From NCBI GenBank assembly GCA_018056725.1, contig JAGPFF010000001.1, positions 26,034 to 90,033 of the forward strand: a stretch of 64,000 bases of DNA. Reading direction: 5' to 3'. This document shows, piece by piece, positions 12,581 through 36,280 of this stretch. Source of the DNA: Anaerolineaceae bacterium (GTDB lineage: Bacteria; Chloroflexota; Anaerolineae; Anaerolineales; Anaerolineaceae). The notes below the pieces were generated by a model. It saw nothing but the letters and a program-made list of their open reading frames with translations, searched no databases and was not told the origin of the DNA. How positions within the stretch are numbered: the stretch's first letter is position 1; every line of letters begins with the position of its first letter. Position numbers and translations under genes: made by a program.

Positions 12581-13744
12581 TTAATCGCTCACTCTTTCAA
12601 GAACATGGGCAATGGCTGTGGATGCCGCGCCTCCCAATGAAAGGGTAAGCGCTCTACGCGCGTCTGGCACCTGGTTGGCACCTGCCTGCCCGCGTAACTG
12701 GGTCACCGCTTCCACAATCTGGTAAACACCAACTGCACCGATGGCATTTCCACGTGCCAGACTGCCCCCCATTGTCATCAGCGGCAAACGACCGCTCAAC
12801 GCAAAGTCGCCATCCCGCGCCTGCTGCCAGGATCGACCGACATCCGCCATACCGCATGTTTCCAGTGTCAGCGCAGCATAAATCGAAAAAGCGTCATCCA
12901 GTTCAAATAAACTGATCTGCTCAGGCTTGACCTCTGCCTGCTGTGTTGCGGCAAAGACGGCGTTTGCCGCCGCGCTGAAGGAAAGAGGTTCGTAGCGGTC
13001 ATGCCAGGAAAGCGAGTCGCTGCTGGCGCCGGTCCCGGCGATCCGGATAATCGCATGAGGGTAATCAGCCGGGAGCCGGTCAAGGCGGGTGAGAATGACG
13101 GCAGCCGCCCCATCGGCGTACGATCCGCCGTCAAAACGGTTCAAGGGATCACTGGTTTGAGCTCCACGGTTGTAGGCTTCGGCTGAAAGGGGTTGGCGAT
13201 GAAAAGCATTGGGGTTGGAGGTTGCATTGGCGTGTGCCAGGAGAGCAAAACCACTCAGAGCTTCGGAGGATAAATCATGTTCATGCAGATAACGGTGCTG
13301 GATCAGAGCGGCAAGACCGGAGCTGGTGAGCCCGGGAATGGCTTCGAAGTCAAAATCCATTTCCTGGGTCAACCGGGCTTCAGCTTCCTCCCGAAGCAGA
13401 TCGGACCACTTTTCCACGCCCAGCACGGCAACTGTGTCGGCGTAACCACTGAGGATGGAAAGAACGCCAAGGCGCAGCGCGGCAGCTCCGCTGGCACCGG
13501 CAGCTTCCGTGGTATAGGATTCCACCCCATTAAGGTGGGCATAATCAGTGAAGAGGGCGCCAAGGTTTGCCTGGTGCGAAATCATCGAAGCCAGCATATT
13601 CCCGATATATAGCGCGTCGGGCTTGAGATCTCTACTGTCATGAATTGCCTGCATCAGCGCTCTGACCCCCATTGAACGCAGGCTAAGATCATAATGCTCG
13701 CCGACCGGGATTTGACCGATTCCTGCAATGACAACTTCAGTCAT
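12581..13744 (-). CDS. Thiolase-fold protein (archaeal/SCP-x type acetyl-CoA acetyltransferase homologue) lacking the canonical catalytic Cys and His
   Basis: 387 aa from MTEVVIAGIGQ (ATG at 13744, RBS GAGGAG). Thiolase-like motifs are present (GVEKWS, DGAAAVIL, QLRGQAG). However, it reads AAGASG where ACASG is expected and GNAIGAVG where GHP.GATG is expected. Confidence 0.8.
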   Translation of the reverse strand: MTEVVIAGIGQIPVGEHYDLSLRSMGVRALMQAIHDSRDLKPDALYIGNMLASMISHQANLGALFTDYAHLNGVESYTTEAAGASGAAALRLGVLSILSGYADTVAVLGVEKWSDLLREEAEARLTQEMDFDFEAIPGLTSSGLAALIQHRYLHEHDLSSEALSGFALLAHANATSNPNAFHRQPLSAEAYNRGAQTSDPLNRFDGGSYADGAAAVILTRLDRLPADYPHAIIRIAGTGASSDSLSWHDRYEPLSFSAAANAVFAATQQAEVKPEQISLFELDDAFSIYAALTLETCGMADVGRSWQQARDGDFALSGRLPLMTMGGSLARGNAIGAVGVYQIVEAVTQLRGQAGANQVPDARRALTLSLGGAASTAIAHVLERVSD

Positions 13745-13754
13745 AGCGTGCTCC

Positions 13755-14831
13755 TCAGTCCATGTCAATTTTGCCGCGGAAGCGGGCGTACGTGGCATAG
13801 TTGATCTCCGTCCTGCGGGCGAGATAGTCTGCCACGGTCGGGGCAAGCGCGCGCCGTTCTTCGATACGCTCTGTTACCACATGATAGAAGGCATCGGATC
13901 CAGCTCCTGAGCCATAAGAAACTTGCAAAATACGGTCACCGGGTTTGGCGATATCCAGCACCGCGCTCAAACCAATCATGGTGGCGCCAGCGTAAGTGTT
14001 ACCGATTTTCGGCACGAGTAAACCCGGCAAAAGTTGTTCATCACTGAAGCCAAGGTCTTTTCCAGCTTTCATCGGGAAGCGGGGATTGGGTTGGTGAAAT
14101 ACCGCATAGGTAAAATCGGCTGCGGTCATTCCCAATTCATCCATCAATACCCGTCCGGCGGTTTCCACATGGCGGAAGTAAGCCGGGTCGCCGGTGAACC
14201 GCTGGCTGTGCTCGGGATATTTCTGCTCGGGACGGCGCCAAAAATCGGGCGTGTCGGAAACAAAAGAATAGCTGGCTTCAATAAGAACTGCCGCTTCTTC
14301 CGCAGGACCGATAACGAACGCCGCGCCACCGCTGCTGGCGGTGTATTCCAGCGCATCACCGGGTTTTCCCTGCGCCGTATCCATGCCAATTGCCATGGCG
14401 TAACGTCCCATGCCTGAGCCAACGAGAGCAATCGCGGCAACCATCGCCTCGGTGCCAGCTTTGCAGGCAAATTCCCAATCCCCTGCCTGGATGTGATTTG
14501 AAGCGCCAATGGCTTCCGCCACAATGGTGCCGCTGGGTTTCACGGCATAGGGGTGGGATTCTGACCCTACCCACACGGCGCGGAGTTCCTGCGGGTTGAT
14601 TCCCGCGCGCGCCAGCGCGTTCCGGGCTGCTTCGATGGACATGGTAATGACATCTTCATCCAGCCCGGCAACGGATTTTTCCTGCACCGGGGAGCCTTTG
14701 GGGGAGCCCGTCCAGAGTTGCGAGATTTCGCTGCCTGGCAGGCGATAGCGGGGAATATAGGACCCATACCCGATAATTCCGGTTTTGCGGTCCGTTCGTA
14801 ATAAAAGGGATTTGTTATGTGGTGTATTCAT
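13755..14831 (-). CDS. Hydroxymethylglutaryl-CoA synthase, archaeal type
   Basis: 358 aa from MNTPHNK. Contains [21 protein letters not shown] (Glu), [10 protein letters not shown] (Cys), FHQPN (His) and GNTYAGA. Confidence 0.85.
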
Positions 14832-14835
14832 CCGG

Positions 14836-16113
14836 TTATTTTCTCCATTCCTGAAGAATTTGTGCCGCCCGATCTGCGCGGATCGAATGCTCACGAATGA
14901 GCTGGCGGGCGAGCCGTTCTACCTCTTCTCCAACTGCGCCTACCGATAACGCTATCTGACGGGCATGGAGGCTCATGTGACCGCGCTGGATCCCCTCGGT
15001 GGCAAGAGCGCGCAATGCTGCCAGGTTCTGAGCCAGCCCCACCGCCACGATGATTTGTGCCAGTTCTGAAGCGGAGGCAACTTGCATCATCTTGAGGGCG
15101 GTTTTGGCTGTGGGGTGCGACCGCGTGGCTCCGCCAACAATACCCACTGCCATCGGCATTTCAAGAAATCCTTTCAGGTTACCGTTGGAATCAGATTCCC
15201 ATCTGCTCAGGCTGGTGTAACAGCCCCCGCGGGCGGCATAAGCGTGCGCGCCGGCTTCCACCGCTCGCCAGTCATTCCCGGTTGCGATCACCACTGCATC
15301 CACACCATTCATGATGCCTTTATTATGCGTGGCGGCACGGTAGGGATCAGCCACAGCAAAAGCCCATGCTTCGAGGATACCATCACGAACCTTTTCAGGC
15401 GCATAAGCCCCAAACCCCAGCGAGGCAAGCGGAATGGTGCACTCCGCACTTGCCAACCGCCGGTCTGCCAGGTTGGAAAGGATGCGTAAATGCGGACGTC
15501 CACCGCTGATTTCCGCCACGAGTGGAGCGATTTGTTCCAGTGCAGTGTTGATGGCGTTGGCGCCCATGGCGTCGCGAACATCATAAATAAGATGGAGGAC
15601 TAAAAATGGACCGATGGGGGAATCATGGATCTCCCGCACTTCAAGATCGCGTGGACCCCCGCCAAAACGTGAAAGGACGGGGTCGACCTGTGCCGCCAGC
15701 GCCATCAGTTCTTCACGTCTTGCCAGAATTCTGGCTTTCGCCTCGGCAAGATCGGAAAGATCGAGTAATTGTAGCTGACCGATCATCTCCGGAGGGGTCG
15801 ACTGCGTGGTAAAACCGCCACCCTCACGTGTCAGGCGCGCCATAAAAGAAACTGCCGCGATCACTGAAGGTTCTTCAATCGCCATCGGAACGATGACGTC
15901 ATGACCATTGATGAGAAAATTACGCGCCACGCCCAGGGGAAGGTTGTAAACGCCGATAGCGTTCTCGATCATGTGATCCGCCTGTTCGACAGTCAGCCCA
16001 TGACTGCCATCCAGAGTCATCAACTCTTCCGGGGTCAGATGCGCTTCCTCCGCGAGGATTTCCAGCCGGTTAAAGAGCGGGAGTTGGTAAAACTTGGATG
16101 AATGTTGTTCCAT
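14836..16113 (-). CDS. Hydroxymethylglutaryl-CoA reductase, class II
   Basis: 425 aa. Contains [47 protein letters not shown] and SLHARQIA. Confidence 0.9.
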
Positions 16114-33279: not shown

Positions 33280-34950
33280 TTACCACTCTTTGACCATGTA
33301 AAGCTCCTGCTGCTGGAAGCCACGGCGGGCGTAATAAGGGCGGGTGCCAACAGCAGCAATGACTGCCATCTTGCGCAGCCCTTTCTCCCGGGTGATGTGG
33401 GCAGCTTCTTCAAGCAGGCGGGTGCCCAACCCGCTGTGCTGCGCGGCGCCGCTGCTTTCGCGACCCACAGGGAGGGATTGACCGAAGACATGCACTTCAC
33501 GAATGATCGCGGCATTCTTCAGCTCCGGAATTTGCAGGTCGGGAGCGCCTTCTCGCGGGAAAGAAAGGCGTAAATAACCTGCCAGACGGTCTTCAGGGGT
33601 GTTGAAGGAAAGAAAATGCTCCTCACTGCTGGCGGGGGCATAAACCGTATCAAGAAAGGTCAATTGATCTGGTTCAATGGCTTGACCGCGAACCTCACGG
33701 CAGCGAATGCATCGGCAGGAAGTTCCGCGACGCTGCATCTCACGGTGGACATCCTGCCTGAGGCTGGTGCGCTTGTTGCCGGCAACGACGTGAAAAGAGG
33801 GAATATCGCGGATAATGCGATTGACGCGGCAATAAGGAGGAATGAGGGGTTTGATATCCGCCAGCAGCTCCACCAGAGTTTCCGTACTGTAGGGAGTATA
33901 GTCGCCACGCTGCCAGTATTCGTAGAGTTCGGCGGATTCCAGCAGCTGGGTGGGGTAGATCTTGATCTCGTCAGGTGCAAAGCCATCCGACCACAGCCGG
34001 GCAAAATCATCTCGGTCAGACTGGGGCGTGGCTCCCAGGAGGTTGGGCATCCAGTGGAGCACGATCTTAAAACCGGCTGCGCGCAGCAGTGTCATCGCTG
34101 TAAGCGTGTCAGCACGGGTATGTCCCCGTTTGTTCAGGGCGAGGATGCGATCATCCAGACTCTGTGCCCCCATTTGGACTTTTGTGACGCCCAGCTGGCG
34201 CAGCCAAACGAGCTCATCACGGTTGATTTCATCAGGGCGAGTTTCTATGACCAAACCTACATTTCGATGATTGGCATGTTCATTCTGAGCATGGGCAAGC
34301 TTCAGGTCACTGAGGTTGATGGGGGTGTGATCACGTGGAGAGGGCTCTGGGGCAGGAGCGGGCTGAGCGTCCGTGTCCAGGCTGTCTGCATTCATGGCAT
34401 GGAAGCAGCGCCGGATGAACCACTCTTGATAATTGCGCGGGTAGCAGCTCCAGGTACCACCCAGGATGAGCAACTCGATCTTGTCATTGGGATGACCCAC
34501 AGCCGCGTATTCAAGGATGCGGGAATGAACCTGGTCGTACGGGTCAAAATGGTTCTGAAATGCGCGCGCGGCGCCAGGTTCATCGGAGAGGTAACTCTTC
34601 GGCATTTGGTCTTCGCTGGGGCAGAAGATGCAATGACCAGGACACGGAGATTCCTTCGTCAGCACAGTGACGGTGGTCACACCTGAAAGGGTGCGTACCG
34701 GCTTCATGCGAATGCGGGCAAGAAATGACGGATCCTCCGACCATTCGCCTTCCTCCACCAGTTGGTGATAGGCAGCTACCAGAATGTGTTTCGCTACCAG
34801 CGTGCCATCCGGCATGGGGTGAGAGCGTAAAGCGCGGTCCAGCCGGATGCCGCTGCGCACATCCTCCAGGATGGTGCGGGCAGTCTCAAGCTGGGCAGGC
34901 GTATAGTGGCGCGCCTGGCGCCATTGTTCCATTTGTTCTTCAGTTTTCAT
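33280..34950 (-). CDS. elp3: Elp3-family radical SAM / GNAT enzyme (tRNA U34 carboxymethylation-type)
   Basis: 556 aa. Radical-SAM cluster motif SPCPGHCIFCPS, a central rSAM barrel, and the C-terminal GNAT QHSGLGTRLLEEAAHITREKG...VGTRPYYARRGF. This two-domain fusion is diagnostic of Elp3. Confidence 0.85.
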   Translation of the reverse strand: MKTEEQMEQWRQARHYTPAQLETARTILEDVRSGIRLDRALRSHPMPDGTLVAKHILVAAYHQLVEEGEWSEDPSFLARIRMKPVRTLSGVTTVTVLTKESPCPGHCIFCPSEDQMPKSYLSDEPGAARAFQNHFDPYDQVHSRILEYAAVGHPNDKIELLILGGTWSCYPRNYQEWFIRRCFHAMNADSLDTDAQPAPAPEPSPRDHTPINLSDLKLAHAQNEHANHRNVGLVIETRPDEINRDELVWLRQLGVTKVQMGAQSLDDRILALNKRGHTRADTLTAMTLLRAAGFKIVLHWMPNLLGATPQSDRDDFARLWSDGFAPDEIKIYPTQLLESAELYEYWQRGDYTPYSTETLVELLADIKPLIPPYCRVNRIIRDIPSFHVVAGNKRTSLRQDVHREMQRRGTSCRCIRCREVRGQAIEPDQLTFLDTVYAPASSEEHFLSFNTPEDRLAGYLRLSFPREGAPDLQIPELKNAAIIREVHVFGQSLPVGRESSGAAQHSGLGTRLLEEAAHITREKGLRKMAVIAAVGTRPYYARRGFQQQELYMVKEW

Positions 34951-34969
34951 CGGACGTTATAATGGGGGT

Positions 34970-35767
34970 ATGAATCAGCATACCCTTCATCGTTTGATCT
35001 CCATCAATCAGGAATTCTACCAGAATTTCGGGCACGCTTTTGCGCAGACTCGAAGGCGGATCCAACCCGGGGTGAGGTGGGCGCTCGAGAAATGGGGTCA
35101 GGATGGCGATTGGCTCGATCTGGGTTGTGGAAGCGGGGCGCTGGCTCAGGCGTGGCAGAAGGCAGGATTGAAAGGTTCATATACCGGAGTGGATTTTAGT
35201 CTGCCATTATTGGCAGAAGCGCAGAATTTACCAGCGGCTGGCTGCATTGAAACAGGGCTGCAGATCACTTTCCGGCAGGTGAACCTTGCAGAAGCCGATT
35301 GGGTGAAGGAATTCACCCCCCGGAGTTTTGATGGTATTGTCTCGTTCGCAGTCTTGCATCACCTGCCGGGGGCGGCATTACGCGAACAGATGATCCTCCA
35401 GGCAGCCTCCCTGCTGAAACCGCATGGGTTAATGATCCTTTCAGTGTGGCAGTTTCAGAATAGTGCAAAGCTGCTGGCGCGAGTGCAACCCTGGGCAAAG
35501 GTTGGAATCTCGGAGAACGAAGTGGAGGAAGGAGATGCCCTGCTCGACTGGCGCTACCATCCAGATCAGGCGGAGCAAGCCAATGGCTTGCGCTATGTGC
35601 ACCTCTTCACCCGGGAGGAACTGGCAAGATTGAGGGCAGCGGGCGGGTTCACGCTGCTGGAAGAATTCGAATCGGATGGTCAGGGAGGTCGGCTGGGTCT
35701 CTATCAGGTTTGGCGCGCAGGCGATTCATCCGGGGGGTCTTCAGGGTTGAAGCCGGATTTAAGATAA
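34970..35767 (+). CDS. Trm9-like class I SAM-dependent methyltransferase
   Basis: 265 aa. FAQTRRRIQPG, LDLGCGSG, FDGIVSFAVLHHLPG, GDALLDW and LRYVHLFTREEL correspond to yeast Trm9 segments HFSQTRYKPWP, IDVGCGNG, FDFAISIAVVHHWS, QDVFVPW and YRYYHLYREGEL (yeast sequence from memory). Confidence 0.65.
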   Translation: MNQHTLHRLISINQEFYQNFGHAFAQTRRRIQPGVRWALEKWGQDGDWLDLGCGSGALAQAWQKAGLKGSYTGVDFSLPLLAEAQNLPAAGCIETGLQITFRQVNLAEADWVKEFTPRSFDGIVSFAVLHHLPGAALREQMILQAASLLKPHGLMILSVWQFQNSAKLLARVQPWAKVGISENEVEEGDALLDWRYHPDQAEQANGLRYVHLFTREELARLRAAGGFTLLEEFESDGQGGRLGLYQVWRAGDSSGGSSGLKPDLR

Positions 35768-36138
35768 GCCGGTATTTCACCGCGGATACGGCGGCGAAGT
35801 TGACCGAGGTGATAGTTTACCGCGCGGCGTGAAAGGTCGAGCATGGCGGCGATTTCAGCAGTGTTAAAGCCGCGAGAGGAAAGCTCCAGCACCTGCCGCT
35901 GGCGGCGAGAGAGATCGGATGTCGGGGAAAAAATGCGCGGACGCCCGGGTAAACGAACCGGTGCGATGATCACACTGGCATTGACCTGGATGGCAGTAAG
36001 CTTTCCGGGAGGTGCGGCGCGCAATATCGGTAGCGGACGCAAACCGGCATTGATGGCAGCCACCAGTTCAGCCGGAGAGAGATCGATTTCCAATTGGATG
36101 ACAGTGGCGTCATCCGGCAGGTAGAGCAGGCGGGTCAT
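35704..36138 (-). CDS. LuxR-family HTH transcriptional regulator (no receiver-domain phospho-acceptor recognised)
   Basis: C-terminal LSRRQRQVLELSSRGFNTAEIAAMLDLSRRAVNYHLGQL. The start is uncertain (ATG at 36138 or TTG at 36177). The 3' end overlaps the Trm9-like gene by 64 nt. Confidence 0.65.
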   Translation of the reverse strand: MTRLLYLPDDATVIQLEIDLSPAELVAAINAGLRPLPILRAAPPGKLTAIQVNASVIIAPVRLPGRPRIFSPTSDLSRRQRQVLELSSRGFNTAEIAAMLDLSRRAVNYHLGQLRRRIRGEIPAYLKSGFNPEDPPDESPARQT

Positions 36139-36280
36139 GGGAATCCCTGGCGGAGATGGAGTGATTAACAAAACCAATAGAACTTATATTCTATATTTTA
36201 ATCCGCTTCCCATTAATGTCAAGTAGCATCTCCTGTTTTAAGTCTTCCAATGGCCTCTGTCGCAACCGTTGCGTGGGTAG

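Follow-up and report, generated by a model that had tools for sequence, protein, structure and literature searches.

Divergent Elp3 and Trm9-like methyltransferase genes in Anaerolineae as a likely two-step wobble-uridine modification module

Do bacteria carry the pathway in which Elp3 and then Trm9 modify the wobble uridine of tRNA, a route regarded as a eukaryotic and archaeal trait? The question is raised by a 64,000-nt stretch of DNA from an Anaerolineaceae bacterium (GCA_018056725.1, contig JAGPFF010000001.1; hereafter the window), where at positions 33280–35767 an Elp3 gene stands head to head with the gene of a class I S-adenosylmethionine (SAM)-dependent methyltransferase. A first-pass annotation of the window had proposed that the two are a full Elp3 and a relative of Trm9, that they are co-regulated, and that they constitute a two-step wobble-uridine pathway. 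Our analysis makes it likely that Elp3 and the Trm9-like methyltransferase form such a module acting on uridine 34 (U34); its product, tRNA substrates, transcription start sites and independence from Trm112 we infer. The locus is laid out as follows.

33280..34950, minus strand: Elp3 gene, 556 residues, ATG start
34951..34969: divergent spacer of 19 bp between the two starts, CGGACGTTATAATGGGGGT
34970..35767, plus strand: Trm9-like class I SAM-dependent methyltransferase gene of the Anaerolineae subtype, 265 residues, ATG start

Both open reading frames (ORFs) lie exactly where the first-pass annotation had placed them, in the same head-to-head layout around 19 bp, and all peptides it quoted are found in the translations: CPGHCIFC (residues 103–110), QHSGLGTRLL (504–513) and VGTRPYYARRGF (534–545) in Elp3, and FAQTRRRIQPG, LDLGCGSG, SFAVLHHLPG, LLDW and LRYVHLFTREEL in the methyltransferase.

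The two proteins of the divergent locus

The larger protein matched the NCBIfam ELP3 model TIGR01211 with 474.6 bits against a cut-off of 350, residues 72–555 covering model positions 47–521 of 522. A Pfam scan returned Radical_SAM and Radical_SAM_C, while the two GNAT matches fell slightly under their cut-offs (20.5 versus 20.7 bits and 21.1 versus 23.6 bits). Its closest solved structures are all Elp3 proteins: that of Dehalococcoides mccartyi (DmcElp3; 5l7j, 5e-102), that of Methanocaldococcus infernus, and those of yeast and human. The near full-length match above the cut-off and the Elp3 structures at the head of the PDB matches bear out the description of a full Elp3, and we identify the 556-residue protein from its sequence as Elp3, a radical-SAM and GNAT/lysine acetyltransferase (KAT) enzyme that synthesizes the carboxymethyl group of tRNA wobble uridines. 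Its diagnostic features are listed below.

34726..34950, minus strand: N-terminal extension of ~75 residues, outside the N-terminus of TIGR01211; alignments to PDB entries and to the model begin at residues 72–83
34621..34644, minus strand: radical-SAM motif CPGHCIFC (C103-x3-C107-x2-C110), read directly; pairs with CPGKCIYC of DmcElp3
33700..33717, minus strand: cysteine triad CRCIRC at the zinc site of the inter-domain linker, residues 412–417; identical to CRCIRC of DmcElp3
33412..33441, minus strand: acetyl-CoA-binding motif QHSGLGTRLL of the KAT domain (QHSGLG = residues 504–509); pairs with QHRGLGRKLL of DmcElp3

A three-cysteine zinc site in the linker is typical of bacterial and archaeal Elp3 (PMC6367351). 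The N-terminal extension is conserved, with tblastn matches starting at residue 1 in most Anaerolineae loci, and it is neutral to acidic rather than basic (9 K+R versus 13 D+E). In published work the Elp3 N-terminus has been linked to tRNA binding, and the weak activity of DmcElp3 has been attributed to its short N-terminus. A 356-residue ORF antisense to Elp3 (33616–34686, plus strand) was set aside, since the frame with homologues is that of Elp3; the composition of the Elp3 coding strand most likely accounts for it.

General-purpose family models place the methyltransferase less precisely. Its Pfam matches are generic (Methyltransf_11, 12, 23, 25 and 31), and it reached no NCBIfam family at the curated cut-off of that family. 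Identity with CpaM (45.1 bits versus 180), UbiG (37.8 versus 103), BioC (37.5 versus 185) or UbiE (26.9 versus 216) was ruled out by the cut-offs, and identity with CmoM by its absence among the NCBIfam matches at E ≤ 0.01.

Dedicated comparisons point to Trm9. A single-sequence phmmer search of the PDB returned at the top the Yarrowia Trm9 of the Trm9–Trm112 complex (5cm2_Z, E 2.6e-5), with an alignment that runs through the substrate-side half. When the PDB was searched with a 31-sequence profile of the window methyltransferase family (A1), Trm9 was the only one of the top matches to be aligned near full length (profile positions 25–235). As a reference set we used 20 fungal proteins (A2), several of which are named tRNA (carboxymethyluridine(34)-5-O)-methyltransferase or TRM9 by NCBI/UniRef. 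The hhalign comparison of A1 with this set gave a probability of 98.4% (E 5.8e-15) over 195 columns, spanning window residues 14–236 from the N-terminal helix to the last strand. In a reciprocal test with built-in negatives, a hidden Markov model (HMM) of the fungal Trm9 set was run against the 4166 ORFs of at least 100 residues in the window and 88 related loci (1.4 Mb). It matched exactly the 89 members of the family and no other ORF even at E 10, the window protein scoring 40 bits (E 5.6e-11). Automated annotation by JGI names many family members TRM9, and NCBI calls them class I SAM-dependent methyltransferases. Together, the top single-sequence match, the hhalign probability, the exclusive fungal HMM and the JGI names uphold the proposed relationship to Trm9.

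The residues known from yeast Trm9 allow a closer look at function. Mutagenesis showed that D72, H116, W145 and W168 are essential, the W145A, W168A and H116A variants being inactive, and that changes of R29, R241, Y243 or N271 lower activity at least tenfold (R29A retains ~5%); H115 and Y18 lie within the modelled 5-carboxymethyluridine (cm5U) pocket (PMC4678810). We mapped these positions by hhalign and by a three-way MAFFT alignment. Eight of the ten residues shown or modelled to matter are kept in the window protein, namely Y18 (window Y17), R29 (R28), D72 (D75), H115 (H130), H116 (H131), W145 (W160), W168 (W194) and R241 (R208). Conservation was assessed on 151 sequences, the window protein and 150 distant representatives chosen among the 692 clusters that matched at E ≤ 1e-30; the equivalents of R29, H115, H116, W145, W168, R241 and Y18 are each kept in at least 129 of these. 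The corresponding segments, with yeast numbering marked Sc, are the following.

35015..35071, plus strand: N-terminal helix FYQNFGHAFAQTRRRIQPG with Y17 and R28; pairs with VYxQIASHFSxTRYKPWPIV of Trm9
35114..35200, plus strand: SAM motif I LDLGCGSG and the acidic D75 (ScD72); invariant in the A1 alignment
35342..35371, plus strand: SFAVLHHLPG with H130 and H131 (ScH115 and ScH116), kept in 138 and 149 of 151 sequences, respectively
35441..35623, plus strand: substrate-side lid with W160, W194 and R208-Y209-V210-H211 (ScW145, ScW168 and ScR241-Y242-Y243-H244)
35666..35713, plus strand: C-terminal strand region FESDGQGGRLGLYQVW with D236 (ScD270), which hhalign pairs with D221 of Yarrowia Trm9; MAFFT moves this pairing by one column

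Conservation of the pairing and of the spacer

The divergent arrangement of the two genes exceeds chance. Screening one genome per GTDB species yielded 80 methyltransferase loci, all from Anaerolineae, of which one was uninformative. Among the other 79, Elp3 diverges from the methyltransferase at a distance of no more than ~360 bp in 63, lies 0.7–9 kb upstream of it in 6 and is absent from the available flank in 10. We also counted the other genes around the pair in the window (those for DegV, an immunoglobulin-like protein, a LuxR-type regulator, a DcuC-type transporter, YgjP and a GNAT protein). Among the 45 loci whose flanks were complete, Elp3 occurs in 42 and the other neighbours in just 16–26. 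Five distant members of the family (172–241 bits) adjoin Elp3 or lie one gene away from it, although all remaining neighbours differ and Elp3 identity falls to 47%. Cultured carriers of the pair include Thermanaerothrix daxensis GNS-1 and Ornatilinea apprima P3M-1.

Several variant layouts were observed. In L085 (2294–4999), L045, L072, L074 and L079, Elp3 and the methyltransferase are ~2.9 kb apart; in L085 the gap encodes a 901-residue protein with no Pfam match. In Flexilinea-type loci (L047:3492-6101, L063:8156-10756 and L075:8080-10762) the methyltransferase follows RdgB/HAM1-like and L-serine-dehydratase-like genes on the same strand and is not beside Elp3. One family member, the 429-residue P0163 (L088:536-1825), whose cluster has 19 members, has the Trm9-like methyltransferase fused to a C-terminal GNAT domain (Acetyltransf_9); the fusion gene still diverges from the N-terminus of an Elp3 gene that is cut by the contig end.

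The pairing is also found in a second class. The DmcElp3 sequence, used as a query, recovered its gene (P0426) in the D. mccartyi genome CP019867.1, where it diverges from the gene of a 224-residue class I methyltransferase across a 43-bp spacer. Three further Dehalococcoidia-type loci share this layout, and the methyltransferases of the subtype measure 213–226 residues. They score 62–73 bits on the fungal Trm9 HMM, compared with 40 for the window protein, that of D. mccartyi reaching 73. The equivalents of the eight Trm9 residues kept in the window protein are present here too, and the subtype keeps R-Y-Y (with Y243 retained), V-P-W, H-H and a C-terminal R-N. Between D. mccartyi and the window, the methyltransferases are 27% identical and the Elp3 proteins 40% identical over 479 residues. 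When metagenomes were scanned for this subtype, 80 loci emerged; among the 65 informative ones, Elp3 is adjacent and divergent in 53, further upstream in 6 and absent in 6. The pairing is kept in two classes, although identity drops as low as 27% for the methyltransferase and 40% for Elp3 and all other neighbours change. Its persistence through deep divergence of both partners is, at the level of sequence, strong evidence that they work together. With 63 of 79 Anaerolineae loci and 53 of 65 Dehalococcoidia-subtype metagenome loci, the adjacency that the first-pass annotation proposed to look for across Chloroflexota is borne out in both sets.

Two observations concern the surroundings of this subtype and of short Elp3 proteins. 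In D. mccartyi and a relative (L089:3140-4406 and L090:2767-3859) the pair lies ~1–2 kb from a small GNAT gene and the gene of QueH, an epoxyqueuosine reductase and thus another enzyme of tRNA position-34 modification; this proximity may be a coincidence. A short-type Elp3 on a contig labelled Bacteroidota (L092:2318-6527) lies near genes for SAM synthetase and adenosylhomocysteinase. We dropped it as a sign of spread beyond Chloroflexota, given that the contig ends 153 bp upstream and precludes seeing a partner.

The spacer itself carries a conserved element.

34958..34963, plus strand: TATAAT, candidate shared bidirectional -10 element, with -11A at 34959 and -7T at 34963; the predicted +1, 34970, is the A of the methyltransferase ATG

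On the bottom strand the hexamer reads CATTAT and has the same two key positions, which puts the predicted start at 34950–34952, 0–2 nt before the Elp3 ATG. The window and 28 related loci share one geometry, in which the Elp3 start is followed by about seven nucleotides, TATAAT, six or seven nucleotides and the methyltransferase start, with an invariant TATAAT amid variable surrounding bases. In 61 of 89 sequences an exact TATAAT ends 6 or 7 nt ahead of the start codon of the methyltransferase gene, and those without it are mostly loci where Elp3 is not immediately adjacent. Among the window ORFs of at least 150 residues, 3 of 67 have the same geometry. A sigma-70 scan of the spacer region found neither a paired -35/-10 site nor a passing -35 element, so conservation of the -10 hexamer is the sole basis of the promoter case. 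Two published patterns agree with it: the TA-like signal described for leaderless genes, which in Chloroflexi is TAtaaT, and symmetric bidirectional promoters, with divergent starts 7–25 bp apart (most often 18 bp) and reciprocal -11A/-7T pairing. The element suggests one bidirectional promoter with leaderless transcripts from the predicted starts. The proposed coupling and co-regulation of the two genes gain support from both sides, the adjacency kept in two diverged subfamilies and the conserved promoter element of the spacer.

At its other end the methyltransferase gene meets a convergent gene for a LuxR/GerE-type helix-turn-helix protein (157 residues, 35704–36177, minus strand), the two ORFs sharing 64 bp (35704–35767). 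The overlap falls in the C-terminal tail of the methyltransferase, where the predicted local distance difference test (pLDDT) score is below 50; among the A1-aligned members this tail is shared only with P0001 (94% identical). The LuxR/GerE-type regulator is the commonest neighbour after Elp3, present in 26 of the 45 full-flank loci.

Elsewhere in the window, three consecutive genes at 12581–16113 (minus strand) encode mevalonate-pathway proteins: a thiolase-domain protein, a 3-hydroxy-3-methylglutaryl-CoA (HMG-CoA) synthase of archaeal type (TIGR00748, 518 bits) and an HMG-CoA reductase of degradative type (TIGR00532, 392 bits). With this trio the window shows a further feature reminiscent of archaea. 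A search with ARAGORN detected no tRNA gene anywhere in the 64 kb. The guanine-cytosine skew (positions 1–64000) is positive nearly throughout, with a cumulative value of 1.71 at the window end, which suggests that the window lies within a single replichore, with neither origin nor terminus.

A proposed wobble-uridine pathway and its alternatives

In the pathway that we propose, the radical-SAM and acetyl-CoA (KAT) domains of Elp3 would first carboxymethylate C5 of U34 in a subset of tRNAs, yielding cm5U. The Trm9-like enzyme would then use SAM to methyl-esterify the carboxyl group, giving 5-methoxycarbonylmethyluridine (mcm5U) or its thiolated derivative. R28 and H131 would position the carboxylate as an arginine/histidine pair, and W160 and W194 would stack on the base and its neighbouring nucleotide. 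One symmetric -10 element, read in both directions from the 19-bp spacer, would drive both genes as leaderless, or nearly leaderless, mRNAs and so tie their expression together. Chloroflexota that bear the pair thus probably run a wobble pathway from Elp3 to Trm9 of which the documented cases have been eukaryotic and archaeal. The two-step reading of the first-pass annotation finds computational support here, with mcm5U as the putative product.

A number of results weigh against this reading. On whole-protein and fold scores, Trm9 is not singled out among class I methyltransferases: in the A1 profile search of the PDB it ranked third, after two uncharacterised methyltransferases of the archaeon Methanosarcina, and Foldseek, run with the AlphaFold model (pLDDT 90.1) against the PDB, placed it 18th among more than 1200 class I methyltransferases returned. 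The Foldseek scores of these are near-equal, and fold comparison was accordingly dropped as a discriminator, even though Trm9 has the best target-normalised TM-score (0.78) despite its rank. A profile restricted to the lid (A3, 94 columns) matched the Trm9 profile only at P = 0.0013 and nothing in the PDB, Trm9 included; it was too weak to stand alone as an argument and was dropped. In 10 of the 80 Anaerolineae loci (~13%), those of the cultured Longilinea arvoryzae and Flexilinea flocculi (no Elp3 within 10 kb) among them, Elp3 is missing from the available flank of 1.7–10 kb upstream. Eukaryotic and archaeal Trm9 need Trm112, and we found no Trm112-like gene in the window or within ~10 kb of the genes in the 88 loci, by a crude regular expression and by tblastn with an approximate E. 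coli YcaR query of low sensitivity; by this crude local test the first-pass annotation was right that no such partner is visible nearby. A 2020 review is explicit on the lack of nucleoside or enzymatic evidence for Dehalococcoides. Finally, two of the ten Trm9 positions differ. Y243 is replaced by V210, and among the 150 representatives this position is V in 109, C in 14, A in 8 and I in 7; for N271, neither hhalign nor MAFFT finds an equivalent asparagine in the window protein.

Because eight of the ten key residues are kept and Y243 and N271 are not, the window methyltransferase is, as judged by these alignments, a Trm9 homologue with a partly remodelled pocket, and the pocket changes of the Anaerolineae subtype could mean a variant activity. 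The strongest of the alternatives builds on this point: the enzyme would descend from Trm9 and act downstream of Elp3, with a product other than plain mcm5U, made on another substrate form (for example, thiolated or derivatised cm5U), another set of tRNAs or another methyl acceptor on the same side chain; the altered pocket and the N-terminal extension of the Anaerolineae Elp3 would both reflect this difference. The Y243A and N271A changes each lower the activity of yeast Trm9 at least tenfold, and both residues are replaced in the window subtype, unlike the Dehalococcoidia subtype with its Y243 and R-N; moreover, deletion of trm9 in Haloferax left cm5U undetected, which indicates that prokaryotic cm5U chemistry has unknown branches. 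On the other hand, the enzyme keeps R28, H131, R208 and both tryptophans, which favours an unchanged chemistry, formation of a carboxyl methyl ester on a uridine, and the N271 contact, modelled to read O2 and N3 of U34, comes from manual docking only and not from a solved complex (PMC4678810). We regard this alternative as unlikely.

A second alternative, which we hold to be improbable, sees the adjacency as inherited synteny and the methyltransferase as a generic class I enzyme of the UbiG, UbiE or BioC kind acting on a small molecule or a protein, its likeness to Trm9 being that of a shared SAM-binding fold. It draws on the generic Pfam matches and on best NCBIfam families (CpaM, UbiG and BioC) that lie far under their cut-offs, on top PDB profile and Foldseek matches that are other methyltransferases, and on the genomes in which the methyltransferase gene is away from Elp3. 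Yet UbiG, BioC, UbiE and CpaM score 27–45 bits where 103–216 are needed, CmoM is not among the matches, and the likeness to Trm9 is not confined to the Rossmann core but takes in the N-terminal helix, the lid and experimentally defined Trm9 residues; nor does plain synteny sit well with a pairing kept across two classes, at 27% and 40% identity, while other neighbours change. That the Elp3 homologue is no tRNA enzyme at all, and instead a protein acetyltransferase or another radical-SAM enzyme paired on a non-tRNA substrate, is highly improbable: Elp3 has long been debated as a histone or protein acetyltransferase and DmcElp3 is weak in vitro, but acetyl-CoA hydrolysis by Elp3 from bacteria, archaea and eukaryotes is set off by tRNA alone and not by peptides or other nucleic acids (PMC6367351), all Elp3 hallmarks are kept, and the partner resembles a tRNA methyltransferase.

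Beyond the two-step wobble-uridine module itself, a more specific proposal is possible, at somewhat short of an even chance. Anaerolineae and Dehalococcoidia would have a self-contained two-gene module of the mcm5U type that dispenses with Trm112 and the other Elongator subunits and is expressed as two leaderless mRNAs from one symmetric promoter. The Anaerolineae, in which the Trm9 pocket is remodelled and Elp3 carries its N-terminal extension, would have a functionally distinct variant. If true, the self-contained module would overturn two published statements, that Elp3 among bacteria is confined to Dehalococcoides and that Trm112-dependent methyltransferases have no bacterial homologues. 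A Trm112-free enzyme would be the simplest available system for the study of Trm9 catalysis. The widespread presence of the pair in Chloroflexota, cultured species included, makes bacterial mcm5U directly testable, and the pair would bear on how archaea and Chloroflexota came to share the pathway, by inheritance or by exchange.

Comparison with known wobble-uridine systems

Other bacterial routes fill the same niche, the C5 side chains of U34, with enzymes unrelated to the pair: MnmE/MnmG/MnmC make 5-carboxymethylaminomethyluridine (cmnm5U) and 5-methylaminomethyluridine (mnm5U), and CmoA/CmoB/CmoM make the methyl ester of uridine 5-oxyacetic acid (mcmo5U). CmoM, too, methyl-esterifies a carboxyl group on the U34 side chain. 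NCBIfam scans detected no MnmE, MnmG or CmoM signature in either protein or in 20 large window ORFs, a 64-kb window being unable to show absence from the genome, and no thiolation enzyme among the same 20 ORFs of the window.

The pair represents a probable bacterial instance of a known pathway, with two subtypes in Chloroflexota, that is apparently undescribed in the literature searched, which did not cover the 2016 paper on the DmcElp3 structure (PMC5018218). We found no paper there that deals with Elp3 together with Anaerolinea. According to the 2020 review, bacterial Elp3 occurs in Dehalococcoides alone, and direct evidence of bacterial xcm5U is lacking because the carriers are hard to grow; a 2017 review states that a search for bacterial homologues of Trm112-dependent methyltransferases detected none.

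Eukaryotic Trm9–Trm112 (yeast; Yarrowia, 5CM2) and ALKBH8–TRMT112 share with the window methyltransferase the class I fold, the N-terminal helix, the lid hairpin, the eight residues and, in the pathway proposed here, a place downstream of Elp3. The window protein differs in having ~16 extra residues around strand beta-3, which is the Trm112-binding edge of Trm9, and in being bacterial, encoded by a gene that is physically paired with Elp3 and has no linked Trm112 gene. The archaeal systems likewise combine a prokaryotic stand-alone Elp3, without Elp1, Elp2, Elp4, Elp5 or Elp6, with a Trm9 orthologue that acts next, and in Sulfolobus solfataricus the Elp3 and Trm9 genes are clustered. They belong, however, to archaea, and Trm112 is required there: in Haloferax volcanii mcm5U depends in vivo on both Trm9 (HVO_1032) and Trm112, and cm5U is needed as the substrate in vitro.

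The characterised bacterial Elp3 is that of D. mccartyi, from the same phylum. DmcElp3 (PDB 5L7J) has the same two-domain radical-SAM/KAT architecture, cysteine triad, CRCIRC zinc site and acetyl-CoA motif as the window Elp3. It differs in length, its 459 residues lacking the ~75-residue N-terminal extension of the 556-residue window protein, and its partner methyltransferase is nearer to eukaryotic Trm9 than the window enzyme is (73 versus 40 bits on the fungal HMM).

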